This document shows, piece after piece, positions 19,724 to 38,218 of a stretch of 64,000 bases of DNA. Position numbers and translations under genes: made by a program. Origin of the DNA: Ignavibacteriales bacterium (lineage in GTDB: Bacteria > Bacteroidota > Ignavibacteria > Ignavibacteriales > Ignavibacteriaceae). The stretch lies in the NCBI GenBank assembly GCA_003141435.1, contig PLLW01000046.1, positions 3,577-67,576 of the forward strand, written 5' to 3'. Under the pieces are notes generated by a model. That model worked only from the letters and a program-made list of their open reading frames with translations. It was not told the origin of the DNA and did no database searches. Every line of letters starts with the position of its first letter. The stretch's first letter is position 1.

Positions 19724-20053
19724 ATGAAATATACAATTGAAGGAACGGACACTAATTTTGATCAGGAAGTGCTTAAATCAGATCTCCCCGTATTGGTAGA
19801 TTTCTGGGCTCCCTGGTGTGGTCCCTGCCGCATGGTTTCTCCGGTGGTTGAGGAATTAGCAGAAGAGCTCACCGGAAAACTTAAAGTTGTTAAAGTTAAT
19901 ACAGATGAAAACCAGGAAATTGCAATTAAGTATGGTATTCGCAGCATCCCCACATTAGGTATCTTCAAAGATGGAAATATAGTTGACGGTGTAATCGGTG
20001 CAGTGCCCAAACAAACTATTAAAGAAAAACTGCTCCCGCATTTAAATAATTAA
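19724..20053 (+). CDS. trxA: Thioredoxin
   Basis: 109 aa with [15 protein letters not shown] active site and a GIRSIPTL cis-Pro loop. Confidence 0.95.
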
Positions 20054-20058
20054 GAACT

Positions 20059-20514
20059 TTAATTTATAATAACTTCGTCCGGAATTTCATTTGTGTCATC
20101 CGGCTTTACAGGAAAGTGTTCCGCAAGAACCTTTCCTGTTTCCTCTACCCCGTGTATAATTCCCTTTGCAAACATCCCTTTAATAAAAAACTCCTGCATA
20201 CCGTCCTTTATTTTATGCCAGGTGTTTTCAGTAACTTTATCATTAATTGCGGAATCTGTAAGGATATAGAATTGTCTTTCCTTCAAAATCATATATATAA
20301 GAATCCCCGTTTTATCTCTCGTTTTACCTATCCCCAATCTTGCAAATTCCCTTTTTGCAAGTTCATCAACTGTCTTTCTCCATTGTAAAAAAGATTTACG
20401 CTCCCTGATGCTCACACAAATTTCGCCTGCCGTAAGCTTTTCATATTCCTTTATTTTATTGGTAATACGAAGCAGATCATCATCATTTACATAGTTATAT
20501 ATTAATTTTTTCAT
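20059..20514 (-). CDS. TPM-domain (TLP18.3/Psb32/MOLO-1 family) protein
   Basis: GEICVSI...GILIYMILKERQFYILTDSAINDKV pattern of the TPM phosphatase-like domain. No signal peptide seen. Confidence 0.5.
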   Translation of the reverse strand: MKKLIYNYVNDDDLLRITNKIKEYEKLTAGEICVSIRERKSFLQWRKTVDELAKREFARLGIGKTRDKTGILIYMILKERQFYILTDSAINDKVTENTWHKIKDGMQEFFIKGMFAKGIIHGVEETGKVLAEHFPVKPDDTNEIPDEVIIN

Positions 20515-20623
20515 AAAGGTTGTAATGTTTATTAATAAAGGTATAAAACTTATCCCTATATCTCAATAGGGAATTAACAAAATAATATAAAGGGGCTATT
20601 AACTACTTTAATTGTCGAATATT

Positions 20624-21922
20624 TTAATCATTAAAATATCTGGCTACACGAATGGATTGTTCAGTTGAAGAATTCTCCCCAGTATAAAACAGGTAAGAAA
20701 CATTGTTAAATTTTCTGTAGTTGGGATACCAGATCGAACAGCGACCGTTAATTGTGTTTGATTGGGTGAATATAGGATTATCGGATTTCGTGAAATGAAT
20801 TCCATCAGTTGAAGTTGCCATACCAAAGCCGGTGCCGATTGTGTTCTGATATATCATTTTGAAAATACCACTGTCATAAATAACAGTCGGAAACGCTACA
20901 CTGCCTGATTCCCATGGTAGGGTTGCACTAAATACTATTTGCCTTTCCCAGAATAAACCGTCAATTGATTTTGCAACGCCAATTATTACTCCATTTGTAG
21001 TATTTTGCGATGTAGAACAACAATAATATCCATAATAAATGCTGTCTTTTACAACCACATCTGTAAAATTAAAATGATAATAACCAGCGGTAATACCTAT
21101 TATCGGAGTACTATTTTTTACCCAATTAATGCCATCTATTGAAAGGGCAATCCCTGTTCTAACATCTTCTGAATAATTTTGATGACCTGTATAATACATT
21201 TTATACGTATTGCCAACTTTTATAACAGCAGAAACAGCTATCGAATATCCATCCCATGCACTTGAATCTCCTTTCGAAAGTACAGGCTTGGAACCAATAG
21301 TGTTCCAATTAAGACCATCCTGAGATTCAGCATACCAGACACTGGCGACGGCAGAATTGTATATCCCGTCATACCACATTTTATAAATACCATTATCATA
21401 AATTATTTTTGCTGTGTTAACTCCATTCGGATTTGAAGGATTATTATTTTTTGTCTGAACTGGATTCCCTCCATAATCAATCCATTGTGTGCTGTTGTTA
21501 GTCCCCCATTTAACGAATATATATATTGTCCCTGTTCCTGATGATACTGGATTAAGAGTTAAATTTAATTGAACAACAACATTTTCCTGGACAAGTACGT
21601 CAGTCTCTCCAGTATAAATTATTGTCCCATTATTATCCTTTGCATCAACCTTCAGATGCCAGGTCCCTACTTGAACAGCCGGAACCGTAACATCACCCGT
21701 TGAGTCTGATAAAAGATTTAGATTTGTAGTTATTGTTGTAAAATTTGTCCTGGATAGTGTAGCTGAAATTACGACTACTCCTGTTGGAACTGAAGCAGGA
21801 TCAAATTTGAAATTGATGCCCCCTGTTGAAATAGAGGTTGGGTTAGTAATCGTATTGTTTTTTGAACATCCTATAAGGAGGAGAAAAAAAGAAAGAAAGA
21901 AAACCGCTAAGCTTTTTTTCAT
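20624..21922 (-). CDS. Secreted lipoprotein: N-terminal Ig-like domain plus a five-bladed beta-propeller glycoside-hydrolase-like domain
   Basis: Lipobox LLIGCS. Five recurrences of a blade motif: IYKMWYDG, TYKMYYTG, IYYGYYC, IFKMIYQN, SYLFYTG. This resembles the GH43/GH32/GH130 propeller clan. The family assignment is tentative. Confidence 0.4.
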   Translation of the reverse strand: MKKSLAVFFLSFFLLLIGCSKNNTITNPTSISTGGINFKFDPASVPTGVVVISATLSRTNFTTITTNLNLLSDSTGDVTVPAVQVGTWHLKVDAKDNNGTIIYTGETDVLVQENVVVQLNLTLNPVSSGTGTIYIFVKWGTNNSTQWIDYGGNPVQTKNNNPSNPNGVNTAKIIYDNGIYKMWYDGIYNSAVASVWYAESQDGLNWNTIGSKPVLSKGDSSAWDGYSIAVSAVIKVGNTYKMYYTGHQNYSEDVRTGIALSIDGINWVKNSTPIIGITAGYYHFNFTDVVVKDSIYYGYYCCSTSQNTTNGVIIGVAKSIDGLFWERQIVFSATLPWESGSVAFPTVIYDSGIFKMIYQNTIGTGFGMATSTDGIHFTKSDNPIFTQSNTINGRCSIWYPNYRKFNNVSYLFYTGENSSTEQSIRVARYFND

Positions 21923-22049
21923 TTATAAATCCCGTATTATTTCTAAGAAATTAATATTTACTTAATTAATAGAATAATTCAACATCCAAAAGAATGAATG
22001 TGTGAACCTAATCATAGAAAACTATCCTTTTTCCGTATAAAAAGCAACA

Positions 22050-22080
22050 CAGCCCGCAACTATCAACTAGCTGCGGGCTG
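22050..22080 (-). terminator. Rho-independent terminator of the DUF4097 gene
   Basis: cagcccgca / tgcgggctg form a 9-bp GC-rich stem, followed on the minus strand by a T-rich run. About 30 nt downstream of the stop at 22109. Confidence 0.6.
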
Positions 22081-22108
22081 CATTATGTGGAGAGAGAACG
22101 CTTAATCT

Positions 22109-23032
22109 TTATTTTTTCGAAACTTTTATATCACCGCCGGATGTCTTGGCGTAAAGATGATTACCCCCATTATTAATATCCGCTTCGAATTTGTTCGAAG
22201 ATATCCTTTCCGCATTGTTTCCCTTAAAATCGCATGAAATACGCCCGCCTGAACTCAATAACCTGGCCGCTGCACTAAAATCTGCAGGTAAATTTATTTT
22301 AATATCTCCGCCTGATGTATTTAGCTCAATTCCTTTGTTTTGCCCCTTATAGTCTAATTTAATATCACCTCCTGAAGTTTCAGCATAGATCTTAGAATCA
22401 TTCCCTGCCAATTTTATATTTCCGCCGGAGGTATGTGCATCAAAATCCCCATTAAAATTGTTTGCTGAAATATTTCCACCTGAAGTAGCAAGCTTCATGC
22501 TTCCGGAAACATTCTCTATTCTTATTTCACCCCCGGATGTATTAGTCCTTATATTACCTGATGAATTCCTTACGTAAATATTTCCCCCGGATGTTTTCAA
22601 ATTAGGATTTCCGTTTAATCCCTCCAGCTTTATGTTCCCTCCTGATGTATATGTTTCAGGATTAAAGTTTTTTGGCACCTTTATCTCAAATTTCAATCTT
22701 ATTCCGCTATTCCATCCAAAGAAACTGTCCTTTATTTTTGTGGTTACTTCCACCGTATTCTCATCGTTATGGAATTTGAATTTAGTCTTTTCCTTTGCAC
22801 GGTCATTCCCCAAAATTTTAATATAAACTTCATTTTTGTCCCATGTTGAAATTTCTATATTTCCGGATGATGCATCCAGCTTTAAGGTTTTTCCCTGATT
22901 TATCTGAAATGTTTTTTCCTGCAGAACCTGTAAGTTCTGGTCATCAAAATATGAGTTGTCCATAGTGCATGAAAAAGAAGATGTTGCCATGAAAATTACA
23001 GAGGCAAAAAGAAGCAATTTGTTCATGATCAT
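22109..23032 (-). CDS. DUF4097-family beta-strand repeat protein (putative adhesin), secreted
   Basis: Signal peptide and about ten repeats of the (T)SGG(N/D/E)I(K) motif typical of DUF4097. Confidence 0.75.
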   Translation of the reverse strand: MIMNKLLLFASVIFMATSSFSCTMDNSYFDDQNLQVLQEKTFQINQGKTLKLDASSGNIEISTWDKNEVYIKILGNDRAKEKTKFKFHNDENTVEVTTKIKDSFFGWNSGIRLKFEIKVPKNFNPETYTSGGNIKLEGLNGNPNLKTSGGNIYVRNSSGNIRTNTSGGEIRIENVSGSMKLATSGGNISANNFNGDFDAHTSGGNIKLAGNDSKIYAETSGGDIKLDYKGQNKGIELNTSGGDIKINLPADFSAAARLLSSGGRISCDFKGNNAERISSNKFEADINNGGNHLYAKTSGGDIKVSKK

Positions 23033-23300
23033 TTTCTCCTGATAATCTTTTATAAATTTAGACGGTAAAATGCTGAAAAAGTTACTTCTATAATATGAAA
23101 AATACTTGGTTGGTCAGAAAAACTGATAACAGGTGTTTTTTCTAAATAGTCAAATAAGCATAGAAACTAAATATTTCTGTTAATTCGAGAAAAACATTGG
23201 CTGTAAATCAAACTATTCATTATTTTTGTATTAAGTTTATAAATCAATAGAGTTTTCCTTAATATATTTATAATGGAAGGAATGGTTCTAGCGGGTTTTT

Positions 23301-26300
23301 ATGTCAATTCAATTAATTAATCAATACTACAACAAACGGAACCGTATTGTTCAATACGGCGGCTCCAAAAATGAATTAAGCATAAGGGATCCATTCAAAG
23401 ACCTTCTCAATCATTACGCTGATAAGAAAAACCTTCTTCTGATACCTGAACTAGCTATTATGGGGACTAAGGGTTCAAAAGTAAAACCGGATGGCACGTT
23501 AAAGAATGCTTTGCGGTTAGACTATGGTTATTGGGAAAGCAAGGACGAAAAGGATAGCATTGATGAGGAAATAGATACCAAGATCAAGAAAGGGTATCCT
23601 CTTACAAATATTATATTCGAGGATGGGCAGACAGCTATCCTTATCCAGCATGGGCAGACAGTTGCGCGCGTAAATATGAATGACAGGGATAAACTTGATG
23701 AAATCCTTAATCAGTTTATTAGTTTTGAACACCCACAGGTAAAAGAATTCACAGAAGCGTTATTAAAATTTAAGGAAGACCTGCCGAATATTCTTGAAGC
23801 TTTGCGTGAACTAATGATTAAGCAGGGGAAAACAAATCCAGGTTATGTAGAAGCACGAGATAAATTCCTTGAGCATTGCAGAGAGGAGATCAATCCTGAG
23901 TTTACTCCCGATGACGTGAGGGAAATGATAATTCAGCATATCTTAACTGAAGAAATATTTAATGCCGTTTTTGATGAAACCCATTTCCACCGAGAGAACA
24001 ATATTGCCCGTGAACTTGAAAATGTAATCGGGACATTCTTTACAGGTGAAACCCGAAGGAATACTCTTGAAGGGATCAAACATTATTATTCGGTTATAAG
24101 CAATAATGCCCGCAATATGGCTGATCACCATGAAAAGCAGAAGTTCCTGAAGGTTATTTATGAGAACTTCTATAAAACATATAATCCTAAAGCGGCTGAC
24201 AGGCTTGGCGTTGTTTACACTCCAAATGAGATTGTTAATTTCATGATTGAAAGTACCGATTATCTTTTACAGAAGCATTTTGGGAAAACTCTTGCCGATA
24301 AGAATGTAGAGATACTTGACCCGGCTACAGGAACCGGCACTTTTATCTGCGATATTATTGATTACATCCCCAAACAGTATCTGCTTTATAAATACAAAAA
24401 TGAGATACATGCAAATGAGGTTGCGATACTTCCTTATTATGTGGCTAACCTGAATATTGAATACACATATAAGCAGAAGATGGGAATTTATGAGGAATTT
24501 CCGAATTTATGTTTTGTGGATACGCTTGATAACACCGGGGCTTTAAAGTACTCTGGTCATCAACAGCAGTTGTTTGGATTTAGTTCTGAAAATGCTTTAA
24601 GGATAAAAAAACAGAATGAAAAGAAGATATCTGTAATAATCGGGAACCCGCCATATAATGCTAATCAGAAAAACGAGAATGAGAATAATAAGAACAGAGA
24701 ATATCCATTAGTTGATGAAAGGATAAAAGATTCCTATATAAGAGAAAGCTCAGCTCAAAAAACAAAATTATATGATATGTATACACGCTTTTATCGCTGG
24801 GCTTCAGACAGAATAGATAATAATGGGATACTTGCATTTGTAACTAATAGAAGTTTTATTGATAGCAGGACATTTGATGGATTCAGAAAATGTATTCAAA
24901 ATGATTTTTCTGAATGCTACATAATTGATACAAAAAGCGATGTAAGGGTAAATCCAAAAATTGCCGGAACAACGCACAATGTTTTCGGAATTCAAACCGG
25001 TGTAGCATTAATGTTTTTGGTGAAGAAGGAAATGCAGGAAGGGAAGTGCAAGATTTATTATATGTCGATGCAGGATGAATGGAGGAAGGAGATAAAACTG
25101 GATTGGCTAAGGAACAATAATCTTAAGACTACTACTTTTGATAGTATTACTCCTGATAAAAATAATAATTGGATTAACCTTTCTGAAAATAATGATTGGG
25201 ATAGCTTATTGCCACTCATAGGCAAAAAAAGCGAACAATCGATTTTTAGATTTTCTTCATTAGGAGTTTCTACTAACCGGGATGAATGGGTATATGACTT
25301 TAATAAAAAAACATTAAAAAAGAAGATGTTATTTTTTATTGGTCACTTCAATCATTTGTTGACTAATAATGATTCTACTTGGAATGGGACAATTAAATGG
25401 AGCGAATCTTTAAAAAGCGTATTTAAGAGAAATCAAAAAATTGTATATAAAGATAGTCTAATTATTCAGGTGAATTACCGCCCCTTTATTAAGCATTATT
25501 ATTATTCAGCGAATCTTTTAAGTGATCGATTAACTCAAAATCATAATGATATTTTTGGAAATGATTTGCTAGCAAATAATGACATTATTAGTTTTTCAGG
25601 TGTGACTTCCTCGAAAACTTTTAATATTCTCGCATCCAACTTGTTAGTAGACCTTCATTTCAATGGAGATGCAAATTGTCTTCCACATTATGTATATGCT
25701 AAAGATGGAGAGCGTGTAGAGAATATTACCGATTGGGGACTTGAGCAATTCTGGAATAAATATAAAGACAAGAAAATTACTAAGGCAGATATTTTCAATT
25801 ACACTTATGCAGTTCTGCATAATCCTGCCTATCGAAAGAAGTATGAACTTAATCTTAAAAGAGAATTCCCGCGTGTACCATTTTATAAGGACTTTTGGAA
25901 ATGGGCAAGGTGGGGAAAGGAGTTAATGAAACTTCATATCAACTATGAAGAGGAAAAGCCATTCGCATTAAAACGTATTGATATAAAGGCTGTTGAGAAG
26001 AAACAGAAACAGAAGGAATTCGTTCCAAAGGTTAAAGAACCTGAACCAATGTTTGGAATGAAACCGAGAATCAAAGTTAAATTAAGAGCTGATAAGACCG
26101 CAGGGACAATCGAACTTGATGATATAACAACGTTAAAGGGAATTCCAAAAGAGGCGTGGGATTACAAACTGGGGAATCGGTCTGCAATTGAATGGATATT
26201 AGACCAGTACAAAGAAAAGAAACCCAAAGATCCCACCATAGCAGAGAAATTCAATTGTTACAGGTTTGCGGATCATAAAGAGGAGGTAATAGAACTCATT

Positions 26301-26369
26301 AGAAAAGTAACCACGGTTAGTATGGAAACAATGGAAATAATCTCCCAGATGGAACTTGAAAAGGAATAG
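23301..26369 (+). CDS. Single-polypeptide restriction-modification enzyme candidate: N-terminal PD-ExK nuclease-like motif, gamma-class N6-adenine methyltransferase, type-ISP C-terminal specificity domain
   Basis: P63-D64...E79-S80-K81 (KPDGTLKNALRLDYGYWESKD) lies at nt 23490-23543. SAM motif I is ILDPATGTGTF and catalytic motif IV is IIGNPPYNA. The C-terminal LHNPAYRKKYELNLKREFPRVPF and WDYKLGNRSAIEWILDQYK resemble the Type_ISP_C domain. I saw no helicase or Walker motifs. Confidence 0.75.
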   Translation: MSIQLINQYYNKRNRIVQYGGSKNELSIRDPFKDLLNHYADKKNLLLIPELAIMGTKGSKVKPDGTLKNALRLDYGYWESKDEKDSIDEEIDTKIKKGYPLTNIIFEDGQTAILIQHGQTVARVNMNDRDKLDEILNQFISFEHPQVKEFTEALLKFKEDLPNILEALRELMIKQGKTNPGYVEARDKFLEHCREEINPEFTPDDVREMIIQHILTEEIFNAVFDETHFHRENNIARELENVIGTFFTGETRRNTLEGIKHYYSVISNNARNMADHHEKQKFLKVIYENFYKTYNPKAADRLGVVYTPNEIVNFMIESTDYLLQKHFGKTLADKNVEILDPATGTGTFICDIIDYIPKQYLLYKYKNEIHANEVAILPYYVANLNIEYTYKQKMGIYEEFPNLCFVDTLDNTGALKYSGHQQQLFGFSSENALRIKKQNEKKISVIIGNPPYNANQKNENENNKNREYPLVDERIKDSYIRESSAQKTKLYDMYTRFYRWASDRIDNNGILAFVTNRSFIDSRTFDGFRKCIQNDFSECYIIDTKSDVRVNPKIAGTTHNVFGIQTGVALMFLVKKEMQEGKCKIYYMSMQDEWRKEIKLDWLRNNNLKTTTFDSITPDKNNNWINLSENNDWDSLLPLIGKKSEQSIFRFSSLGVSTNRDEWVYDFNKKTLKKKMLFFIGHFNHLLTNNDSTWNGTIKWSESLKSVFKRNQKIVYKDSLIIQVNYRPFIKHYYYSANLLSDRLTQNHNDIFGNDLLANNDIISFSGVTSSKTFNILASNLLVDLHFNGDANCLPHYVYAKDGERVENITDWGLEQFWNKYKDKKITKADIFNYTYAVLHNPAYRKKYELNLKREFPRVPFYKDFWKWARWGKELMKLHINYEEEKPFALKRIDIKAVEKKQKQKEFVPKVKEPEPMFGMKPRIKVKLRADKTAGTIELDDITTLKGIPKEAWDYKLGNRSAIEWILDQYKEKKPKDPTIAEKFNCYRFADHKEEVIELIRKVTTVSMETMEIISQMELEKE

Positions 26370-26529
26370 TAATTAAAGCAATTGTACTAAAGACCTAAAA
26401 TATGTAATTTTTGTTGAATTTAAGCCTTTCGATATGTAATTGGCTTGGATTTATGTAATATTCATCATGTTATTGCTTTGGATTTAGATAATATATATAC
26501 TAATATTGCCTTGTATTAATGGAGTTTGT

Positions 26530-27846
26530 GTGTACATTAATAGGAAAGCAGATACCGAGTTAAAAAAATGGAGAGAAGAGAGTAACCACAAGCCCCTTTT
26601 AATAAGGGGAGCGCGGCAGGTTGGCAAAACTAAAACAATCAGAGAATTTGGAAATTCTTTTGAAAGCTTTGTTGAAATCAACTTTGAAGAAAGCCCCCGG
26701 CTTAAATCTCTTTTTGAAGAAGATCTTTCACCCATCTCTATTTGCGAAAATTTATCTGCCATTTTAAAGACCAGCATCATACCGGGAAAAACACTCCTAT
26801 TCTTTGACGAAATACAGGAATGTCCAAGGGCAATAGCCTCACTTCGTTTTTTTTACGAAAAAATGCCAAAACTTCACTTAGTAGTTGCCGGTTCATTACT
26901 GGAATTTGCACTTCAGGAAATGGCTACATTCGGTGTGGGCAGAATTCGTTCCATGTTTATGTATCCTTTGAGTTTTTCCGAATTTCTAGCTGGTGCAGGA
27001 GAGTTTCAATTACTTGAAATTATAAAACAATCAAACCCCACTAAACCAATTAATGGAGTTCTACATAATAGATTAATAGAACTAGTACAAAAATTTATTT
27101 GCCTCGGTGGAATGCCAGAGGTGGCAGCTACTTATTTTGAAACCGGGGATTTGTATAAATGCCAGCAGCTGCTTGATGACTTAATTATTTCTATTCAGGC
27201 AGATTTTGCTAAATATAAAAAGCGGGCGCCGGTTTCCAGATTGATTGAAGTGTTCCAATCTGTTGTATCTCAAGCCGGACAAAAATTTGTATATAAGAAA
27301 GCATGTATACAGGCAAATCATAAACAAATTAAAGAAGCAATACAGCTGCTTATTAATGCAGGTCTCGTTATTCCGGTCACTCATAGTTCTGCTAATGGGA
27401 TACCTTTGGGAGCAGAGGCTAATTTGCAGAAGCAGAAAATGCTTCTATTTGATACCGGAATTTTTCAGCGGATTATGAATCTTGACCTAGCTGATTTTCT
27501 ATTATCAAAAAATTTCGACGCCATCAATAAGGGTAATGTTTCGGAACAGTTCGCAGGGCTCGAATTAATTAAAGTGTCATCTTGCTATCAGACTCCATAC
27601 CTATACTATTGGCATAGAGAGTCACGAAACAGCAATGCTGAAGTTGATTATATTCTGCCGCTTTCGAATAAAATAGTACCGGTTGAAGTTAAATCCGGGA
27701 CAAAGGGATCTATGCAAAGTCTTTTTTTATTTTTGGAAGAAAAAAAACTTTCACAAGGAATAAGGATTTCAAATGAGAATTTTTCAACTTATGACTCAAT
27801 TGAAGTATATCCATTATACGCAGTGGAAAATATTGGATTGAAATGA
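26530..27846 (+). CDS. AAA+ ATPase (AAA_14) with a C-terminal DUF4143 / PD-(D/E)xK-like domain
   Basis: Walker A LLIRGARQVGKT and Walker B LLFFDEIQ. The C-terminal NAEVDYILPL...VPVEVKSG reads as a D...ExK nuclease-like motif. No ATG is available. The GTG at 26530 (giving YINRK...) is preferred; a TTG at 26506 is possible. Confidence 0.75.
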   Translation: MYINRKADTELKKWREESNHKPLLIRGARQVGKTKTIREFGNSFESFVEINFEESPRLKSLFEEDLSPISICENLSAILKTSIIPGKTLLFFDEIQECPRAIASLRFFYEKMPKLHLVVAGSLLEFALQEMATFGVGRIRSMFMYPLSFSEFLAGAGEFQLLEIIKQSNPTKPINGVLHNRLIELVQKFICLGGMPEVAATYFETGDLYKCQQLLDDLIISIQADFAKYKKRAPVSRLIEVFQSVVSQAGQKFVYKKACIQANHKQIKEAIQLLINAGLVIPVTHSSANGIPLGAEANLQKQKMLLFDTGIFQRIMNLDLADFLLSKNFDAINKGNVSEQFAGLELIKVSSCYQTPYLYYWHRESRNSNAEVDYILPLSNKIVPVEVKSGTKGSMQSLFLFLEEKKLSQGIRISNENFSTYDSIEVYPLYAVENIGLK

Positions 27847-27887
27847 ACACAATAACTGTACAAATATCTATAGATCGAACTAGAACA

Positions 27888-28013
27888 GAGAAATTTAATA
27901 GTTACCGCTTTGCTGATCATAAAGAAGAGGTAATAGAACTAATCAGGAAGGTAACCACAACAAGTATGGAAACTATGGCAATAATCAATCGTATGGGGAA
28001 TGAGAAGGAATAG
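27888..28013 (+). pseudogene. Orphan 41-codon remnant homologous to the 3' end of the R-M gene
   Basis: EKFNSYRFADHKEEVIELIRKVTTTSMETMAIINRMGNEKE-stop versus EKFNCYRFADHKEEVIELIRKVTTVSMETMEIISQMELEKE-stop at 26244-26369. That is 34 of 41 residues identical by my count. No start codon or upstream gene body. Confidence 0.8.
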
Positions 28014-28183
28014 TATGGGCGAGAAAATGAAATGGGGGAAATATAGTACCAGTTGGTTCGTTATATGTACTGTATATATAAATTGAACTATGTGCAAGCA
28101 AGGAATTGCGCTGCAAATGCGCTCGAGACGCGCTCGATTCAGTAGGGGAACAATAATTTTTCTGTAAGAAAAACGGAGTAATT

Positions 28184-28882
28184 ATGGGCAAGTTAGAAAA
28201 GAAAAGAGGTAAGACTAATATAAGTGGGCTTGCAGGGGATATTGAATTTTATACAATCAAGGGGGAAACATTTTTCAAGACTCACGCCAAAAAGCATAAA
28301 AAGAGCAGGTCAAAAAAGGCTGTAAGCGGGAGAAGTAACTTTGCATCAGTGGTAAAATTAGCAAAGGAAACAATTAAAATTCCGGAGCTTAAAGAAATCT
28401 GGAGCCACTCTAAATTAAAGGGAATGAATGAATTTCAAAAACTAATTAAATATAATATGCCTTTAGCATATGAGGGAGATTTAACTATTAAAAATTTCAT
28501 CACACATAAGGGGCTAAACTTATATATCCCTGATATATCGCTTGAGGACTTTACTTTGAGTTTTACATTCGATGTATATGGATTAATAAAACCTCCTCTT
28601 AAACTTCATATGTTTATTTATATGTATAATCGTAAAATGAAAGACAGTAGTGCATTTTCAAGTACCTCCAGATCTATTTCAATAAATCAGGATGATATCA
28701 GTATGCTAAGGGAGAAGGGTGAATCAAAGTACAATATGAAGGTTAAACTGGTTGGAGATGAAAAGAAATTTCTGTCGGATTATAAGGATGTACTTGTGCT
28801 TTTTGCGGTGACAGGTACTCCTACAATCCCAAACAGGAAAAGCTGGACAAATACGGTAGGATTTGATATTCCGCTGATATAA
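28184..28882 (+). CDS. Hypothetical protein with a very basic N-terminus
   Basis: ATG preceded by GGAG. 232 aa with a Lys/Arg-rich first 60 residues (KKRGKT...KKHKKSRSKK). I could not assign a family. Confidence 0.5.
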   Translation: MGKLEKKRGKTNISGLAGDIEFYTIKGETFFKTHAKKHKKSRSKKAVSGRSNFASVVKLAKETIKIPELKEIWSHSKLKGMNEFQKLIKYNMPLAYEGDLTIKNFITHKGLNLYIPDISLEDFTLSFTFDVYGLIKPPLKLHMFIYMYNRKMKDSSAFSSTSRSISINQDDISMLREKGESKYNMKVKLVGDEKKFLSDYKDVLVLFAVTGTPTIPNRKSWTNTVGFDIPLI

Positions 28883-28974
28883 TAAACTCTTTTTAGTTAT
28901 TAGTATGAGTATATTTTATTTAAAACTTATCGGAGATGATAGTAATAAGAATAAATAGGGGAGATAGAAACTAA

Positions 28975-29015
28975 AAAACCTCAAATCTTCGCTTTTCGCT
29001 TAAATTTGAGGTTTT
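28975..29015. terminator. Bidirectional rho-independent terminator
   Basis: aaaacctcaaat / atttgaggtttt form a perfect 12-bp stem flanked by A and T runs. Lies between convergent genes ending at 28882 and 29058. Confidence 0.65.
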
Positions 29016-29057
29016 ATTCTCTTTTGCTTTCCCAAAAGTTCATCTATAGTTCTCCTA

Positions 29058-31451
29058 TTAGAAATTTAACTTAAAACCTAAATTAAAAAATCTTGGCGAT
29101 AGGATGTTTGGTAAGGGAACGGGTTGTGTTGTTTCAGGAAAAACATGATACCATGAATATGAAGTAATATTGTATTTGTTGAAAACATTTAATACATCAA
29201 CAGTAAAAACAATATTTCTTCTATCAAAGATATTAAACTCAAATGTTAGTCCCATATCAACTCTGAAATAAAACGGATATTCTTCAGTAACATTATAATT
29301 TGGGACAACCTGGTATGACCCCGGAGTTGCACCAGGTACACTAATCATCGGATAAATGCGATAGCCCGTACCAAATAGAAATAATGTATGGACTTGAAAG
29401 TTCTGATGTTTCTTTGCCTTATCCTGAAGAAAAATCCTGATTGTATGTGTCTGGTCCAATGGGCTTTTTACATACGGAAAGTTGCCCGGTGTTTCTTTTT
29501 CTTCCGCATTCAAATAACTGTAGCCAATCCAGGTTTCCATTCCCTTGACTAATTCCCCTTCATATTGTAAATCCAATCCGTATGCAAACCCCTCATAATT
29601 ATTTTTATCACCGTAAGTTAAATCCATTTCATTAATATAATAAGGTATTAGCCTGCTTAAATTTTTATAAAATAATTCCGCAGTGAACATTGCATTTTCT
29701 TTAAAATTATTTTTCCAGCTTAAATTATATTGAACATCCTTTTGTGATGACAAGGATTTTGCGTCTGTTATACTTTTATCCCGGGTTTCATAAAAATAAG
29801 GGGGTTGATAATAATATCCCCAGGTCAGGTTAAATGAATTTGAAGTATCGGGCTTGTATGAAATGCTTGCACGCGGGCTAATCAAAAACTCACCATTGAA
29901 ATAATATTTCAACGCTCTTAAACCGGCATTAACGCTTAGCTTGCTGTTTAAGAAAATATTGTCTTCAATATATGCTGAAAGAGAATTAAAATCGGCATTT
30001 AATTTCTGAATTGCGGTACTGGAAAAATTTAAAACCGAGTCAGCACCTGTATAATATGTTAATTCATCAAGTGAGCTTTCCATTTTTGAATATCTAAGGG
30101 TTGCTCCCGCAGAGATAGTTTGAGTTTTATAATTTAAGTTGTAATCAGATTTTAATTCAAATCTTTCCGTGTTAAGATAATTTTGAGCAACTTCATGTCC
30201 TGTCTCAAGGTACCGCATGTTATCTTGCGGATTATAGGCATCATTGGAATAATAAACATCGTATGATAAATTTTTGTTGTTAAGTTCTTTATCAGAATAG
30301 TAAGAAATTGAAGTGGTTAAACTGGAATTATCACTTAAAGGAGCTAAGAATTTTAATCCAAGTAAGTTTGTATTGTATTTATAATTAGAACTACCATCAA
30401 AATTTAAAGTTACTTGCTTAATATCCAGGTATGAAGTTTGGAAATTACCAAACCAACTCTGCGGTATTAAATCAAAATTATTTTTGGCTGTTAAAAATAA
30501 CAATTGAACCTGGTAGTTATTAGGTAGGTCGTAAGAGCCGAGAAATTGAAAATCATCAAAACTTGGTTTATACTGACCTTTGGTTTGTAGTGTTTTGTCA
30601 AACAAAGACGGATAAGCATAGCGAAAGCCTGTCCTCCAGTTTAAGTTTCCGGTTTTATCATGCAGCGTTAACCCCATGTTGAACAAGTCAGCATTTAATT
30701 CTCCACCAAGTTCAGGGCTTTCTTCAGTGTAATAATTTACTGCAAGGGAGGAAGACATTTTATCTCCATAATGAACAGGAAATGCAGCATGATAGAATTC
30801 CAAACTGTTAACCATGTTTTCGTTAACAATAGACTGGCTTTCTTCATTGCCCTGCTGAATTAAATACGGCTGATAAATTTCATAGCCGTTCAGGTAAATT
30901 AAATTCTCATCAAAATTGCCGCCCCTTACATTATACGTGCTTGATAACTCGTTATTTGATGTAACACCGGGTAAAATTTTTATACTTCTAAGAATGTCGG
31001 AATAAAGATTGGGCATGTTTTGAATGTCTTTAGATTTCAATGTGTCAGGACTTTGAGTGCCAAAGTATCGATTCGCATTGATAGTAATACCGTTCATTAC
31101 ATAAAAGCTTGATTTTAGAGAAGCGTTTAATAGAATATTTGTTTCGTTTTCGGTGATGCTTACATTCTTTAATAGGGTTTCGTAGCCGACATAGCTAAAA
31201 GTAATTTTATATTTTCCGGGCTTTATGTTTAAAATATAATTTCCAAGACTGTCGGTCGATGTACCAAACGTTGTATTTAGGACAGAAATATTTACCCCCT
31301 TAAGAGGAGTATTACCGTTTGCATCTTTTACATATCCTTTTAAATAGACTAACCTATTTTGTCCGGCTATATTTATAGCCAATACTATTATTGTCGCTAA
31401 AGTGAGTTTCAAACGATTTAAAGACAGCGAAGAGTATTTTATTAATTTCAT
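29058..31451 (-). CDS. TonB-dependent outer-membrane receptor with N-terminal carboxypeptidase-regulatory-like domain
   Basis: Signal peptide and a CarboxypepD_reg motif (GYVKDANGNTPLKGVNISV...TDSLGNYILNIKPGKYKITFSYVGYE). Long beta-barrel ending in an aromatic residue (FKLNF). Confidence 0.8.
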   Translation of the reverse strand: MKLIKYSSLSLNRLKLTLATIIVLAINIAGQNRLVYLKGYVKDANGNTPLKGVNISVLNTTFGTSTDSLGNYILNIKPGKYKITFSYVGYETLLKNVSITENETNILLNASLKSSFYVMNGITINANRYFGTQSPDTLKSKDIQNMPNLYSDILRSIKILPGVTSNNELSSTYNVRGGNFDENLIYLNGYEIYQPYLIQQGNEESQSIVNENMVNSLEFYHAAFPVHYGDKMSSSLAVNYYTEESPELGGELNADLFNMGLTLHDKTGNLNWRTGFRYAYPSLFDKTLQTKGQYKPSFDDFQFLGSYDLPNNYQVQLLFLTAKNNFDLIPQSWFGNFQTSYLDIKQVTLNFDGSSNYKYNTNLLGLKFLAPLSDNSSLTTSISYYSDKELNNKNLSYDVYYSNDAYNPQDNMRYLETGHEVAQNYLNTERFELKSDYNLNYKTQTISAGATLRYSKMESSLDELTYYTGADSVLNFSSTAIQKLNADFNSLSAYIEDNIFLNSKLSVNAGLRALKYYFNGEFLISPRASISYKPDTSNSFNLTWGYYYQPPYFYETRDKSITDAKSLSSQKDVQYNLSWKNNFKENAMFTAELFYKNLSRLIPYYINEMDLTYGDKNNYEGFAYGLDLQYEGELVKGMETWIGYSYLNAEEKETPGNFPYVKSPLDQTHTIRIFLQDKAKKHQNFQVHTLFLFGTGYRIYPMISVPGATPGSYQVVPNYNVTEEYPFYFRVDMGLTFEFNIFDRRNIVFTVDVLNVFNKYNITSYSWYHVFPETTQPVPLPNILSPRFFNLGFKLNF

Positions 31452-31658
31452 ACAAAATAATATTCTATATTTGGTTTTCTTATTTAGTTTTTATTCTCGC
31501 TATTAAAAATATTTTTAGCCGGTCTATCGAATTTAAAGATAAATCTTTATTTAAATATACTATAAACATTCGTGGCAGTATTTATTAATCCATATAGGTA
31601 TATTATTTAATGTAACCCACCTGTCCTTATCCAAAACCCCATCAATGTTAATCTAATG

Positions 31659-34600
31659 CTATTCAACCTCTGTAACTAATTCAGGTGTTTTGTGATTTCT
31701 TTTTGCGAATAATTTTGTTTTAATAGTTTCCGCTGTAAAATAAACGCATGGAACCAATACCAATGTAAGCAAAAGTGAACTTATCAATCCACCGATTATT
31801 ACCCATGCTAAACCGTTTTTACTTTCCGACGAAGCGCCGGAAGAAATTGCCAACGGCAGCATTCCAAATACCATCGCGACGGTTGTCATAAGAATCGGGC
31901 GTAATCTTTCTTTGCCTGCTTCAACAAGTGCATCCAGAATACTTGCCCCATCTTCTTTGAGCTTATTAGTGAAGTCGACAAGAAGAATTGCATTCTTGGC
32001 AACCAAACCCATAAGCATTATCATCCCGATTAAAACAAAGACGGAAATGTTTTGTCCTGTAAGCGCAAGCGCTAGCAATGCGCCTATTAGCGCAACGGGC
32101 AGCGAAAATAATACTACAAACGGATACAAATAGGAATTGTACAACGCAACCATTACAAAATATACAAGTAAAATAGCTGCTGCTAAGGCAAAGAAAAGAC
32201 TTCCAAATGCTTCGGACTGTTGCTGAAGCTGTCCGATATAATCAATTGTAACTTTATTCGAATGAATATTTTGAGCGATGAGTTTTTTAATATCATCACC
32301 AACCGTTCCAACCGGTCTTCCAAAAACCTCGGCATTAACCGTTAGCGAAGAAATTCTGTTGTAACGTTCAAGTTTATTCGGGCCAAGTGATTGGGAAATA
32401 TTAGCAAACTGGCTTAGTTCAATAATTTCACCTTTGGAATTTTTAAATGTTATTGACCCGATATCATCAATTTTTTTCCTATCGAATTGATCCAACTTAA
32501 CATCGATATCGTAATCTGTTCCAAGTTCGGAGTATTGCAGATCCGTATTACCGGCAAAGGCAAGCTGCAACGTGTTACCGACATCAGCAACAGAGAGACC
32601 GAGCATGGACATTTTATCGCGGTCTAAGGATATATGCATTTCCGGTTTGCTTTTTTCAACCGAAAGCCTGATGTCGTTAATACCCGGTACATCTTTTATC
32701 AAATACATTACCTGGTCTGCCACTTTGTAAATTTCATTCATATCGGGACCACGGAGAAGCACTTGAATCGGCGCTTGACTTGTACCCATCATACTGGCGG
32801 CTGCTACAGTTACTTTTAATCCGGGTATCGTAGCAAGTATTTCTTTTTTTATATTGGCGGCATATTGTACGACAGTTTGCTTCCTTGCTTTTTTATCAAC
32901 TATTGTAACCGTTAGTTCCGATTTGTGCTGATCACTGCTTCCTCCACTCATTATATTCGAACTTGAATAGCCGATATTCGAAGATACTTTTACTACTTCC
33001 GGTTTTGAAAAGAGTAGTTTTTCCACTTTTCCGGAAAGAAAGTTGGACTGAAATAGTGTGTTTTGAGGTTCACCCTCAAGTTGAATAGTAAACTCTCCGC
33101 GGTCGCTATTTGGCATAAACTCAGAACCGATAAAACTAAAACCAATTAATGAAAATGATGCAAAAAACAGCGCAATTGCTACAGCAAATACTATTTTTCG
33201 ATGACCTAACCCCCATCTCAAAACCTTTTCATAAAAAGTGACAAGTTTTTTATATATATCTTCGAAACCAAGTGCGATTTTTCCTATCAATGTGTTTCTG
33301 GTCAGTTTCTCTATTTTACTGAAACGTGAAGCAAGCAGCGGGGTAACGGTGAATGAGACAAAAAGACTCATCAAAGTAGAGAAGACAACAACAAGCGAAA
33401 ATTCTCTAAGGAAACTACCGATCAGTCCGGAAATAAGAGCCATAGGCAGGAAAACAGCAACATCCACCATTGTAATTGCAACGGCAGTAAATCCGATTTC
33501 ATTTCTACCATCAAGGGCTGCTTTACTTTTTTCTTTCCCCATTGATAAATGCCGGTGTATATTTTCAAGCACCACAATTGAGTCGTCAACCAAAATACCT
33601 ATAACCAATGCAAGCGCCATTAGAGTCATCATATTGAGGGAGAAATTAAAGATATACATTGTAGTAAAAACCGATAGTAAGGAAGTTGGAATTGAAATGA
33701 GAACGATAAAAGAATTTCTAAAACTGTGAAGGAATAAAAACATTACTATAGCAACAAGCACAATTGCCAATCCTAAATCTTCTATAACGGCATTTGCGGA
33801 TGCTAATGTAAATACGGAATAATCCGAAGCGATCTCGAATTTTAATCCCGATGAAGCGTATTGCGTTTCGATGCTTGCCATTTCTAACTTGGCAAGTTCG
33901 CAAACCTTAACAGAATTTGCATCGGATTGTTTTTGTATTTGTATGCCAATTGAACTTTCGCCATTTATTTTACTCAAATTTGCATGTTCGGCTATACCGT
34001 CAACAATTTCCGCGATATCCGATAGTTTTATTAAGCTGCCATTAGCATTTTTAGATATAATAATGCTTCTTAATTGATCGAGTGAAGTTATCTTTCCAGA
34101 TAATCGAATGGTATACTGACTGGTTATCCCTTCAATTTTACCCGTTGCAAATTGCAGGTTTGAATTACTAACAGCGTTATATACCTCGCTGATGGAAATA
34201 TGATAAGCAGAAAGTTTGTTCCTATCTACATTTACTTTAATTTCTCGTATGTCACCGCCAAGAAGTGTAACCTGAGCTACTCCATTTATTTTTGAAAACC
34301 GAGGTTTTATCTGGTCTTTCGTGATTTGATATAATTTTGTAGACTCCATCTTCGCATGTACACCAATCTTTAAAACCGGAATTTCATCTGTCGAAAATTT
34401 TAATAGTGATGGTGCCTTTGCACCCGTTGGTAATAAATATAATACGGCATTCACTTTTCTCTGTGCGTCTTGAAGCGCTATATCGGTGTTAGTATTTGCA
34501 ACCAGTTCCATAATAATACTGGAATATCCTTCCTGTGAAGAGGAACTCATACTCTTTACATTTTCAAGAGCTGATAGTGCGTCTTCGAGTTTTTTTGTTA

Positions 34601-34787
34601 CGGATGATTCGACTTCATCTGCCGAAGCGCCAGGGTAAGTGGTCGTAACCATTACAATAGGCACATCTATTTTGGGGATAAGTTCGTAGTTTAGCATTCT
34701 ATAACAAAAAATTCCAAGTAAAGTAAGCGCAGTAAAAACTATTACAACCAGCGTCGATCTTTTTATTGCTAATTCGGTTATTGTCAT
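31659..34787 (-). CDS. RND (AcrB/HAE1-type) efflux transporter, paralog of 2869-6024
   Basis: 1042 aa. Same motifs as the paralog (GILVDDSIVVLENI, AILLVDF). 17 of the first 30 residues are identical to the other copy by my count. Confidence 0.95.
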   Translation of the reverse strand: MTITELAIKRSTLVVIVFTALTLLGIFCYRMLNYELIPKIDVPIVMVTTTYPGASADEVESSVTKKLEDALSALENVKSMSSSSQEGYSSIIMELVANTNTDIALQDAQRKVNAVLYLLPTGAKAPSLLKFSTDEIPVLKIGVHAKMESTKLYQITKDQIKPRFSKINGVAQVTLLGGDIREIKVNVDRNKLSAYHISISEVYNAVSNSNLQFATGKIEGITSQYTIRLSGKITSLDQLRSIIISKNANGSLIKLSDIAEIVDGIAEHANLSKINGESSIGIQIQKQSDANSVKVCELAKLEMASIETQYASSGLKFEIASDYSVFTLASANAVIEDLGLAIVLVAIVMFLFLHSFRNSFIVLISIPTSLLSVFTTMYIFNFSLNMMTLMALALVIGILVDDSIVVLENIHRHLSMGKEKSKAALDGRNEIGFTAVAITMVDVAVFLPMALISGLIGSFLREFSLVVVFSTLMSLFVSFTVTPLLASRFSKIEKLTRNTLIGKIALGFEDIYKKLVTFYEKVLRWGLGHRKIVFAVAIALFFASFSLIGFSFIGSEFMPNSDRGEFTIQLEGEPQNTLFQSNFLSGKVEKLLFSKPEVVKVSSNIGYSSSNIMSGGSSDQHKSELTVTIVDKKARKQTVVQYAANIKKEILATIPGLKVTVAAASMMGTSQAPIQVLLRGPDMNEIYKVADQVMYLIKDVPGINDIRLSVEKSKPEMHISLDRDKMSMLGLSVADVGNTLQLAFAGNTDLQYSELGTDYDIDVKLDQFDRKKIDDIGSITFKNSKGEIIELSQFANISQSLGPNKLERYNRISSLTVNAEVFGRPVGTVGDDIKKLIAQNIHSNKVTIDYIGQLQQQSEAFGSLFFALAAAILLVYFVMVALYNSYLYPFVVLFSLPVALIGALLALALTGQNISVFVLIGMIMLMGLVAKNAILLVDFTNKLKEDGASILDALVEAGKERLRPILMTTVAMVFGMLPLAISSGASSESKNGLAWVIIGGLISSLLLTLVLVPCVYFTAETIKTKLFAKRNHKTPELVTEVE

Positions 34788-34796
34788 GGTAGTTTC

Positions 34797-35864
34797 TTAA
34801 TTATTTTTGATTATTTTAATTTGACTGTTGTTTGTAAGATTAACTTGTCCGCTTACAACCACTTTATCGTTTTCAGTAAGTCCGGATAATACTTCGAGAG
34901 ATTCGTTGCCTCCTCGTCCGATCACAATATCTTTTAATAGCGCTTTTCCGTTAGAGGCAACATATACTTTTGCATCTTTGATGCTTCCCTGCAAAGCTTC
35001 GCGCGGAATATACAATGCCATTCTACTTGAGCCGATTCCTACTTCAACATTTACAAATGTTCCGGCTTTCAAAGGATTTTTAGTGCTATTAATAATCTCG
35101 ATCTCTACCGGGTAATTATGAGTATCGTCACCGCGGGGACTTACAAAATTTATCTTTCCTTCGAATGTTATGCCGGGGTAAATATCGGTTGTAATCTTTG
35201 CTCTATCGCCAGTATGTAAATAATAAACGTCCGATTCGGAAACATTTACTTTTACTTTTAGCCTTGAAACATCCACAATTGATGCAACCGGGTCGCCCTC
35301 CTTAACGTATTTTCCTACTTCAACAATTTTTTTTGTGATTGTGCCGGCAATCGGGGCAGTTATTTTAGTGTACGATAATTGTTTTTCAGCTTCATCGGAT
35401 TTGTTTTTTGCAGTTTCGTATGAAGAACGGGCGAGTTCATATTCCTGTTCAGATGAAGTTTCTCCTTTATATAAATTTCCTGTGCGTTCAAAATCTTTCT
35501 TTAATCTATCTGCATCAATCTTTGCCGATTCGTAAGTAAGCTTTTTTATTTTGTCGTCGATTGTAGCTATAACCCCGCCTTTAGGGAAATACTGCCCGAG
35601 TTCATAATTTAGAGAAGTTATTTTGCCGGGGATTTCTGCCGGTATATCCAGTTCTTTATATGGGTACAACGTTCCTGTAAAATTGAGAATGAAAGAAGAA
35701 GCCTTTTTTTCCACATTAGCTATGCTTACAGTAACAAAATCAACATTAAGATTTTGATTTTGAGAAACAATGCGGTCGCGGTTTCCTTTTAATCTTATTG
35801 CCACAAACACAATTGCAATAAGAACAACTATGAGAATTATTATTTTTTTCATATTTATCATCAT
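34797..35864 (-). CDS. RND efflux periplasmic adaptor (MFP)
   Basis: TM anchor, coiled coil, and ITAPIAGTITKKIVEVGKYV lipoyl-like motif. 4-nt overlap with the upstream TolC gene. Confidence 0.85.
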   Translation of the reverse strand: MMINMKKIIILIVVLIAIVFVAIRLKGNRDRIVSQNQNLNVDFVTVSIANVEKKASSFILNFTGTLYPYKELDIPAEIPGKITSLNYELGQYFPKGGVIATIDDKIKKLTYESAKIDADRLKKDFERTGNLYKGETSSEQEYELARSSYETAKNKSDEAEKQLSYTKITAPIAGTITKKIVEVGKYVKEGDPVASIVDVSRLKVKVNVSESDVYYLHTGDRAKITTDIYPGITFEGKINFVSPRGDDTHNYPVEIEIINSTKNPLKAGTFVNVEVGIGSSRMALYIPREALQGSIKDAKVYVASNGKALLKDIVIGRGGNESLEVLSGLTENDKVVVSGQVNLTNNSQIKIIKNN

Positions 35865-37213
35865 TTTAGGTTATTAATAAAATTGGTCAGCGTTCCCTGA
35901 GATTTCTCAAGGTCCAGTTTTGCTATATACAGGGTTAACAATTTATTGTAGTAATTATTTTGTGTCTCTCTCAAAGAGCTTTCCGTTTGCACTAAATCGA
36001 GGGTAGAACCGGTTCCCTGTGAAAATTCCAATTGAGTGTTTTGATAAACGCTTTCTGCAAGCGTAAGATTTTCTTTTTCTGTTTGAATATTATCTATTGC
36101 ATTGCGGAATTGTATGTAATAATTAGATAATTCGACTTTTATCGATTGCTCAGTAAGTTTCAAATTCTCAATAGCTTTTTCGATATTCAATTGGGATTGT
36201 TCAACTTTAGAAAATCTTTTGAATCCAGAAAACACGGGTATCTTTAATTCCAAACCTATTGCAGAACTATTATACCAATCCTTGTCCGATTTGAAAAAAT
36301 CAAATTCGGAACGCATCGCTTGGAAATTGTAATTAGCATAAAAAGAAAGGGTAGGAAGGTAAGCTGAAATATTATTTTGCTTATCAGTTTCATATAACTC
36401 TACATTGGTTTTTTGCATTTGATAATCAACCCGGTTCTCAATAAAATTCCGATTGTCTCTGGATTCAACAAACGAAATTGTACTATCCGGCAAGTCTTTC
36501 TGCAAAATTATATTGCTTTCAACTTGCATACCCATATAAAACTTAAGATTGTTAAGAGCCTGTTTGTAACTCAGTTCTGTCTGCTCCAACTGGGAGTTTG
36601 TAGTATTATAACTGACTTTTATTTTGTCAACATCAATTTTTTTTACCAAACCGTTTTGATATTTCAACTCTGTGGATTTAAGAGTGCGTTCCGATGAGGA
36701 AAGAATTATTTTCAAATTCTCAAATTGTTTTTCAATTATTATTGATTTATAATATGCTGCGCTTACGTCATAAATAACCTGTTCGTCTGTTTTTTGGATA
36801 TTTTGTCCAGATATGGTTTCACTTATTTTTGCAGCCTTCAAACCGACCCAAAAGGAGGGGTCAAAAATCTTTTGAGTTAATGATATTCCAGCGCTTACAT
36901 TATATGGAGTTCCAATTGTAACAGGAATAAATGTGCCTGGTTTACCAATTAACTCACCCGGAAGAATCTGAGTAATAATTTTCAAATTGTCATCAAAAGA
37001 TCCCGTAATATCAATTTGCGGTAATCCATTACCGATTTGTTCGTTAACCATTTTTCCGCTGATATCAGAATCAAGTAATGCTGTTTTAATATTACTGTTG
37101 TTTTTCCTTGCATAATCGATACATTGCTTCAGCGAATAAGTCTGTCCGGACAATGGTAAGCATAAAGCAAGGAACAGAAATGTAATTGACTTAATGGTTT
37201 TCATATTCTTCAT
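35861..37213 (-). CDS. TolC-family outer membrane efflux protein
   Basis: Signal peptide, 450 aa, OEP repeat architecture. First structural gene after the TetR regulator. Confidence 0.85.
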   Translation of the reverse strand: MKNMKTIKSITFLFLALCLPLSGQTYSLKQCIDYARKNNSNIKTALLDSDISGKMVNEQIGNGLPQIDITGSFDDNLKIITQILPGELIGKPGTFIPVTIGTPYNVSAGISLTQKIFDPSFWVGLKAAKISETISGQNIQKTDEQVIYDVSAAYYKSIIIEKQFENLKIILSSSERTLKSTELKYQNGLVKKIDVDKIKVSYNTTNSQLEQTELSYKQALNNLKFYMGMQVESNIILQKDLPDSTISFVESRDNRNFIENRVDYQMQKTNVELYETDKQNNISAYLPTLSFYANYNFQAMRSEFDFFKSDKDWYNSSAIGLELKIPVFSGFKRFSKVEQSQLNIEKAIENLKLTEQSIKVELSNYYIQFRNAIDNIQTEKENLTLAESVYQNTQLEFSQGTGSTLDLVQTESSLRETQNNYYNKLLTLYIAKLDLEKSQGTLTNFINNLK

Positions 37214-37269
37214 ATTTATTTAATAGCGATTATTATATCTTACTAAGTTAGATTTTTTATTAAAAAATT

Positions 37270-37848: not shown

Positions 37849-38218
37849 TTTATGTTCTTGTTATATTTCCTAACTTTGTTAGATTAAACATAAATAATAT
37901 TTGTATAAAACGCAAGAATTTTATTTTAGACTTGGTTATAAAATCTAAATAAGTAATAACAGCCTGTCCATAGTCAAAACCCTATCCAGCCAAAACTATA
38001 TCCGCATTAAAAACAGCTAAATTCCTCTAAAATCAAAAGAAATCTTTCCTTATTTTTACCGAGCAACTTTCAATAATTTGACAGAATTAATGCTCAAATC
38101 ATTACTATTATTCTTCCGGAAATCATACGCCACTAACCTTCAATTAAAATTAGAAATTATATTTCTTATGACTAGGGATAGGATATAAAATTCTTATAGG
38201 ACAGTAAATGCAAAATCG

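Follow-up and report, generated by a model that had tools for sequence, protein, structure and literature searches.

The window analysed here, a 64,000-nt stretch of DNA from an Ignavibacteriales bacterium (contig PLLW01000046.1), contains a predicted Type IIG restriction-modification (R-M) gene whose 3' end occurs twice, once as the end of the intact gene and once as an orphan stump behind a neighbouring ATPase gene. We read this locus, with a probability of about 0.7, as the scar of an insertion that came about by recombination between different alleles of the R-M gene. Four open reading frames (ORFs), namely the R-M gene of 1022 amino acids (aa), the ATPase gene, a 56-aa ORF and a 232-aa gene, are all co-oriented in the ORF map, and the locus is laid out as follows.

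23167–23300, plus strand: upstream or promoter region of the R-M and 232-aa module, starting at the left edge of homology to relatives in other genomic contexts
23301–26369, plus strand: intact R-M gene, predicted Type IIG, 1022 aa (Pfam, PADLOC, sliding identity profile)
26228–26371, plus strand: repeat copy 1, the last 46 codons of the intact R-M gene with TAG and 2 nt (TA)
26372–27871, plus strand: inserted cassette, 1500 nt, missing from empty-site relatives
26439–26521, plus strand: three iterated boxes of ~17-21 nt (ATTGCCTTGKATTWWTG) with a 33-nt period in the ATPase leader, conserved in L029-L032
26530–27846, plus strand: AAA_14 and DUF4143 ATPase-nuclease gene, 438 aa (Pfam, PADLOC, translation)
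27872–28015, plus strand: repeat copy 2, the orphan stump, with the last 46 codons, stop and 2 nt of an R-M allele
27843–28013, plus strand: 56-aa ORF enclosing repeat copy 2 (ORF map)
28016–28183, plus strand: original spacer between R-M and 232-aa genes, 170 nt counted from the stop codon, 92% identical to L025
28107–28139, plus strand: three GCGCT boxes in the spacer, kept in all alleles
28184–28882, plus strand: conserved 232-aa partner gene of the R-M gene, found next to it in relatives

A repeat search of the locus returned a single long direct-repeat family, 26228-26371 against 27872-28015 (144 nt, 78% identity, spacing 1644), and in a tblastx comparison of the upstream with the downstream flank of the ATPase gene the repeat pair scored E = 3e-19. 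Both copies are in frame and both finish with TAG followed by TA. The initial annotation had reported that the last 126 nt of the R-M gene (26244-26369) recur at 27888-28013 with 34 of 41 residues in common; 100 of the 126 positions are identical in register and the 41 codons differ at 7 residues. The weaker upstream similarity described there (DPTIA versus DRTRT) was likewise recovered and amounts to 5 more codons, and the similarity, said to stop at the stop codon, ends 2 nt past the TAG in both copies. The recurrence was correct, but the homology starts 16 nt ahead of the coordinates first given. Counted to 27888, the distance of ~40 nt between the ATPase stop and the second copy also holds; the ATPase stop lies at 27846 and homology of the stump begins 25 nt downstream of it. 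The ATG of the 56-aa ORF overlaps the TGA of the ATPase gene (ATGA overlap). Two observations that would have spoken against an exchange scar were not made: the repeated sequence is not a low-complexity motif, and in no relative is the second copy part of a longer intact gene.

Related contigs were searched for empty-site versions of the locus, a check proposed with the initial annotation, and such sites were found. In L023-L028, L070, L071 and L077 there is no ATPase gene, and the R-M gene is followed at once by the spacer and the 232-aa gene (groups P0003, with L023 and L024; P0002, with L025-L028 and L077; L070; and L071; three other genomic contexts), so that the empty arrangement is seen in four R-M allele lineages. 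Because these contigs have R-M gene, spacer and 232-aa gene without the ATPase, 26372-27871 is an insertion. The repeat is single-copy in L023, L025, L070 and L071. The spacer from R-M stop to 232-aa start measures 170 nt in L023 and L025, and the distance from the window stump to the 232-aa gene is also 170 nt. Moreover, 27872-28886 is collinear with L025 4852-5866 without a break at 92.7% identity (spacer alone 92%, 232-aa gene 95%). As judged from this collinearity, the second copy is the former end of the gene, displaced but not separated from the spacer and 232-aa gene that originally followed it. The relatives show what the ancestral state will have been: a two-gene module in which 170 nt of spacer lay between a Type IIG R-M gene and the 232-aa gene. 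Against this module the window has 1644 extra bases, namely the 1500-nt cassette and one 144-nt gene-end copy. The exact R-M protein was found on 24 contigs, and all listed contigs that reach far enough carry the ATPase gene, the 56-aa ORF and the 232-aa gene; contigs with the window arrangement are 99.97-100% identical to the window and hence represent one clone.

The two gene-end copies represent different allele classes. Type A tails (AIINRMGNEKE and stop) are present in L023, L025, L070, L074 and L080, and type B tails (EIISQME[L/S]EKE and stop) in L071, L076 and the L069 remnant. The intact R-M gene of the window has a type B tail (EIISQMELEKE and stop), the stump a type A tail. The copies differ at 31 sites, 11 of which show both states in other alleles, and 7 diagnostic sites split the intact copy and L071 from the stump, L023, L025 and L070. 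Since the copies come from two standing allele classes, the event was a recombination between different R-M alleles; duplication in place followed by decay predicts private differences, not the allele partition seen. Within the stump, 11 of 11 private substitutions fall in the first 91 nt and 0 in the last 53 (Fisher p = 0.007-0.03), and an 11-nt block (AGTATGGAAAC), identical in both copies, is located at the switch point of this mosaic. Along the R-M gene the density of private sites is 1-4% from 23301 to ~24500, 7-18% over 24500-26090, 3% in the ~150 nt before the repeat and 8% inside it. A reciprocal pattern is borderline, with 14 private sites in the left part of the stump plus the right part of the intact copy versus 5 in the other halves (p = 0.055).

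The 1500-nt insert holds the ATPase gene alone and no mobility gene. Neither terminal inverted repeats nor conserved cassette ends were seen, and a search of the 90-kb contig (C29) for Phage_integrase (tyrosine recombinase) gave no match. Eight tyrosine recombinases are encoded elsewhere in the genome and could act on the cassette in trans. The gene starts with GTG at 26530 (438 aa), an alternative TTG at 26506 giving 446 aa. Its product contains the Pfam domains AAA_14 and DUF4143, the latter classed as a PD-(D/E)XK nuclease fold (PMC3424549), with the Walker A sequence GARQVGKT and the nuclease motif D-x13-E-V-K (EVDYILPLSNKIVPVEVK); EVD...VEVK is preserved in the translation. PADLOC matched it over its full length to PDC-S01 (PDLC04786; residues 1-435, E = 1.4e-140), a family that corresponds to COG1373, and it is regarded as a candidate defence gene of this family. 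It is single-copy in the 3.08-Mb Ignavibacteria metagenome-assembled genome (MAG), and its closest homologues, ~75-80% identical in amino acid sequence, were found in Bacteroidota and Ignavibacteria MAGs. In the phylum sample, 24 of 401 genomes have a close relative, mostly within one genus.

Close relatives of the ATPase gene adjoin ParE, AbiEii and nucleotidyltransferase genes (of the toxin-antitoxin and abortive infection kind) or a transporter operon, and a Type IIG gene was found beside none of them in the contexts examined. As the closest homologues occupy unrelated contexts, the cassette is considered foreign and stand-alone. At the DNA level, the cassette is homologous to ATPase loci of other phyla from 26439-26444 onwards, ~90 nt ahead of the start codon; the boxes of the leader (ATTGCCTTGKATTWWTG) begin at 26439, 26472 and 26505 and might serve the ATPase protein itself as an operator. 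What the comparison shows to lie now 2 nt past the R-M stop is a self-contained 1.5-kb cassette, a PDC-S01 ATPase-nuclease gene with its own three-iteron leader. Three or more ATTGCCTTGTATTTTTGTAAT-like boxes with a 33-nt period precede ATPase genes, including those of L029-L032, and are conserved across phyla; these leader boxes contain the Bacteroidota -7-like TAnnTTTG.

The target of the insertion is itself a defence gene. Its product shows the Pfam domains ISP_coupler, N6_Mtase/Eco57I and Type_ISP_C and was matched by PADLOC to REase_MTase_IIG (E = 5.7e-281, residues 1-906). Nuclease, gamma-class methyltransferase and target-recognition domain are predicted to reside in a single polypeptide, the arrangement that defines Type IIG. 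Assignment to the Type ISP enzymes was rejected: Pfam detected no helicase domain or motor in the 1022-aa protein, and the superfamily 2 helicase-like motor between nuclease and coupler was not found. The target-recognition part (25190-25730) is hypervariable, with 35-75% identity between alleles versus 85-95% in the flanking parts, which would fit an exchange of specificity domains between alleles.

Relatives of the module lack the ATPase, which therefore is no partner of the R-M enzyme. That role falls to the uncharacterised 232-aa gene, conserved beside the R-M gene and retained even where the R-M gene is deleted (L069, L072, L074, L076, L080). The 232-aa protein has no match in Pfam, NCBIfam or PADLOC, the NCBIfam scan returning no matches, and its structure prediction was poor (mean predicted local distance difference test score, pLDDT, 53.6). 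In no fewer than four genomic contexts the 232-aa gene lies beside the Type IIG R-M gene. The GCGCT boxes, ~45-75 nt upstream of it, are conserved in all alleles even where the remaining spacer differs. By blastn, homology of the module starts at 23164-23167 for L023, L011, L070, L074 and L076 and at 23196 for L025 and L072. No RNA gene came out of the Rfam and tRNA scans of 22900-29100 and 20000-32000.

The R-M gene is often lost while the promoter region and the 232-aa gene remain. L069, which has the same left flank as the window, shows a nearly clean R-M deletion (1226-1259), and in L072 the whole R-M gene is lost. In L074 (~2040-2050) and L080 an in-frame fusion at an ATCAT microhomology connects the first ~38 codons with the last ~100 nt, in L076 (~248) the start codon is joined to the last ~110 nt, and in the same-genus genome G003 (L011 899-1369) only the first 156 R-M codons are left. 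Because such deletions leave 3' stumps by the 232-aa gene, stumps are common by-products of illegitimate events, and their varying lengths argue against a function of the stump.

That the locus is the scar of an exchange of defence genes, as proposed in the initial annotation, is supported by the empty sites, the collinear old end and the heteroallelic copies. The cassette would have arrived by recombination using the 3' end of the R-M gene as homology. It would have come joined to the last ~47 codons of another R-M allele, of type B, a piece that now completes the intact gene, and the resident last 47 codons, of type A, would have been pushed downstream together with the spacer and 232-aa gene that they had always preceded, leaving a stump that is probably a non-functional scar. 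As the cassette encodes no recombinase, the agent would be host recombination or possibly the cassette's own nuclease. Two routes are conceivable, which we take to be about equally likely; they match the two scenarios of the initial annotation, both of which call for heteroallelic copies. A reciprocal crossover within the repeat, between the chromosome and a molecule consisting of the cassette plus a gene end, would be an integration of the Campbell type that supplies a surrogate 3' end; it is favoured by the cluster-like 150 nt before the repeat, the mosaic stump and the switch at the 11-nt identical block. Alternatively, one-sided homologous recombination in the R-M gene together with an illegitimate join at codon 976 would have replaced the allele, and this is favoured by the R-M gene being cluster-like from 23301 to ~24500 and an outlier in its 3' half (24500-26090) and by the cluster-like 232-aa gene (95% to L025).

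Several points weigh against an insertion by inter-allelic recombination. Only four other full or near-full R-M alleles were available for comparison and the repeat is short, which makes the mosaic tests weak. R-M alleles are mosaic anyway, so the breakpoints may stem from unrelated events. A donor arrangement, that is a type B allele with an ATPase gene behind it, did not turn up in the donor search, and all 24 contigs with the window arrangement are clonal and offer no population variation. Finally, the copies could have been made heteroallelic after the insertion, via an allele already carrying the cassette. On either view, the present structure was made by recombination between different R-M alleles.

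This last point bears on the classical long target duplication, in which 144 nt were copied at a staggered or resected break and the copies, identical at birth, diverged by mutation and allelic gene conversion. Such a pattern is documented for R-M genes (PMC2853133), and other ATPase loci have short repeats that are 95-100% identical (L044, 38 nt; L045, 28 nt; L060, 50 nt; L062, 38 nt). In the window, however, the differences between the copies are largely standing allelic polymorphisms and not private mutations, conversion of a whole copy by an ATPase-less allele would require a crossover within 11-28 nt of the cassette and presupposes a partner allele with the cassette as well, and the hotspot behind a ppx-like gene described below is heteroallelic as well. 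We consider this origin rather unlikely. Another origin, which we consider very unlikely, is that a second R-M paralogue formerly stood in tandem behind the ATPase gene and was deleted almost entirely, down to the stump, the ATPase gene never having been inserted. R-M deletions do leave 3' stumps of 13-115 nt by the 232-aa gene (L069, L074, L080, L076), but two R-M genes, or an ATPase gene between the R-M and 232-aa genes, are present in none of the relatives, the spacer follows a single R-M gene at exactly 170 nt in every intact relative, and an extra duplication would be needed together with a deletion ending exactly at the ATPase trailer.

Two further explanations assign a function to the repeat. 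The 56-aa ORF might be a small gene translationally coupled to the ATPase gene, for example a decoy or regulator derived from the R-M C-terminus. Its frame is open, its ATG overlaps the ATPase stop and changes in the last 41 codons are mostly synonymous; that bias, however, is expected from divergence while each copy belonged to a full gene. There are three radical replacements in the first five codons, the stumps of relatives vary in length or are missing, and ATPase relatives occur without such an ORF, all of which renders a functional ORF highly improbable. Nor do we give much credence to a composite three-gene defence system of R-M, ATPase and 232-aa genes with the repeat as an internal regulatory or recoding element. 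The three genes are co-oriented and closely packed, but the ATPase is missing from all other lineages of the module, its close relatives never adjoin Type IIG genes and it has its own conserved leader. Such a system is extremely improbable and was rejected on account of the relatives without the ATPase.

The same footprint was found at other loci. Flanking direct repeats of at least 24 nt were scored, the remaining ORFs of these loci serving as controls if they were 300 aa or longer. In the first sample, 5 of 28 testable ATPase loci had flanking direct repeats versus 0 of 75 control ORFs, and a sixth case, L060, was found with shorter flanks; the second (phylum) sample gave 5 of 23 loci, including L097. 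The L097 repeat was discounted as a target duplication, being a hairpin present three times and probably a repetitive extragenic palindrome (REP)-like element, and the flanks of L030 and L143, palindromic CAATTGAAC-type arrays, were not counted. About one in five relatives of the window ATPase carry the footprint. Sequence and length of the repeat differ at every locus (28 to 1334 nt). In L044 it comprises 38 nt, 100% identical, from the last 12 codons of the upstream gene, and a convergent gene contributes its end in L062 (38 nt) and L093 (28 nt). Repeats end 0-4 nt from a stop codon in the window, L044, L093, L038 and L139; a rule that the repeat always ends at the stop codon was dropped, as L087 and L062 show weaker similarity beyond the stop. 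In L038 (4445-8647) a PDC-S01 ATPase gene is flanked by a 1334-nt direct repeat, a whole 410-aa P-loop nucleoside triphosphatase gene present twice (92-97% identity), with the repeat boundary 3 nt from its stop codon.

For L087, a query of the joined flanks matches end to end in at least 14 of 61 genomes of the genus, which are empty sites. In other genomes the site is occupied and holds up to four gene-end copies separating cassettes (two PDC-S01 types and an unannotated two-gene unit). The intact tail and the stump of L087 differ at 6 sites, 5 of which are standing polymorphisms. This hotspot, behind a ppx-like gene (g111), is a second verified case, with empty sites, tandem stumps and heteroallelic copies; when ranked by similarity to the intact tail of the same genome, 5 of 10 stumps take place 18 or below among 24. 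This hotspot belongs to a GC-rich genus of the phylum (L136, G450:C169; L137, G374:C220; L138, G122:C17; L139-L141; L142 is empty) and holds up to three tandem cassettes, each followed by a 31-110-nt partial copy of the gene 3' end. The unannotated two-gene unit seen there encodes 286 and ~230 aa on the opposite strand.

The heteroallelic state of the repeats is a hint that the cassette brought the second gene end with it, as opposed to a copy being made at the target. We tentatively extend this to long target duplications at large, although the extension is possible at best and on balance doubtful: PDC-S01 cassettes without a recombinase would travel, as a circle or fragment, with the gene end of the previous host, integrate by its short homology and displace the resident end. 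They would then be very widespread one-gene elements, possibly helped by their own iteron-binding ATPase-nuclease.

Among known patterns, the closest to the window is the insertion with long target duplication of defence genes, which for R-M genes was reportedly described by Nobusato et al. in 2000. The 144-nt repeat of the window, longer than 30 bp and single-copy in empty-site relatives, and the insert of 1500 nt, below 20 kb and without transposase or integrase, are alike. Furuta et al. (2010) (PMC2853133) described defence genes without a mobility gene that are flanked by direct repeats >30 bp occurring once in the empty site; their criteria included an insert <20 kb, lone mcrA and orphan M inserts were also listed, and the repeats often overlap the 3' end of a neighbouring gene by an unknown mechanism. 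In published cases the repeat copies are near-identical (e.g. 44/46 and 417/423), in contrast to the 78% identical, heteroallelic copies of the window. The window differs further in that its insert is a PDC-S01 ATPase-nuclease gene, not R and M genes, and that the target itself is an R-M gene. Likeness to PDC-S01 in PADLOC covers the full length of the models and both Pfam domains, but the family name is silent on mobility and the role in defence is that of a candidate.

Islands at tRNA genes and ICESt1/ICESt3 at fda (tandem cis-mobilisable elements) integrate at gene 3' ends, for which they carry a surrogate. The window resembles them in that its R-M gene is intact with a tail of the other class and that similarity ends 2 nt past the stop, and the tandem cassettes of the g111 hotspot are separated by gene-end copies. 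However, the window cassette has no tyrosine or serine recombinase and the 90-kb contig none of the tyrosine type, and there is no common att core or conserved element end, the repeats ranging from 28 to 1334 nt. In C-terminal displacement of Rhs and contact-dependent inhibition (CDI) genes, recombination within the conserved upstream part brings in a new end, and the former end persists downstream as an orphan. In the window, too, a new gene end would have arrived and the old end lies downstream as an orphan, but the toxin-immunity logic is missing, the displaced piece has 47 codons and the cargo is an unrelated gene. Because the defining recombinase and toxin logic are absent, the window belongs to neither family. 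Homology-facilitated illegitimate recombination in natural transformation, said to have been described by de Vries and Wackernagel and by Prudhomme et al., both in 2002, would be alike in that foreign DNA would enter through one homologous anchor, the R-M gene, plus an illegitimate join, with a heteroallelic duplication of part of the anchor as a possible result.

The feature is real and ordinary in kind, yet unusually informative because the duplicated ends are allelic. Since donor and recipient did not have the same allele, the origin of each piece of DNA can be read from the repeat copies, which is impossible with near-identical duplications. The locus is a base-by-base record of one defence gene entering another defence locus, in which empty site, insert and displaced end are known. 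It turns an old descriptive pattern into a testable prediction, namely that a cassette with a gene end integrates by homology and leaves the resident end as a stump.

Some further observations concern the cassette and the surroundings of the module. Two close relatives of the window ATPase, in L030 (2151-2306, 4015-4178) and L143 (2615-2739, 4601-4708), are flanked by long palindromic CAATTGAAC/GTTGAATTG arrays, and GCAATTGTAC at 26378, at the start of the window cassette, is possibly a remnant of a palindromic array. The R-M gene has been deleted several times independently, with different end points each time. The sister genome L069 lacks ~9.3 kb (28882-38180) that hold a TonB-dependent receptor and a resistance-nodulation-division (RND) efflux gene in the window, and passes (2140-2166) from the 232-aa gene directly to window position 38181. 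Elsewhere in the genome of the window, on contig C110 (L003 601-918), a distant paralogue of the R-M gene adjoins a homologue of the 232-aa family with 31% identity over 107 aa.

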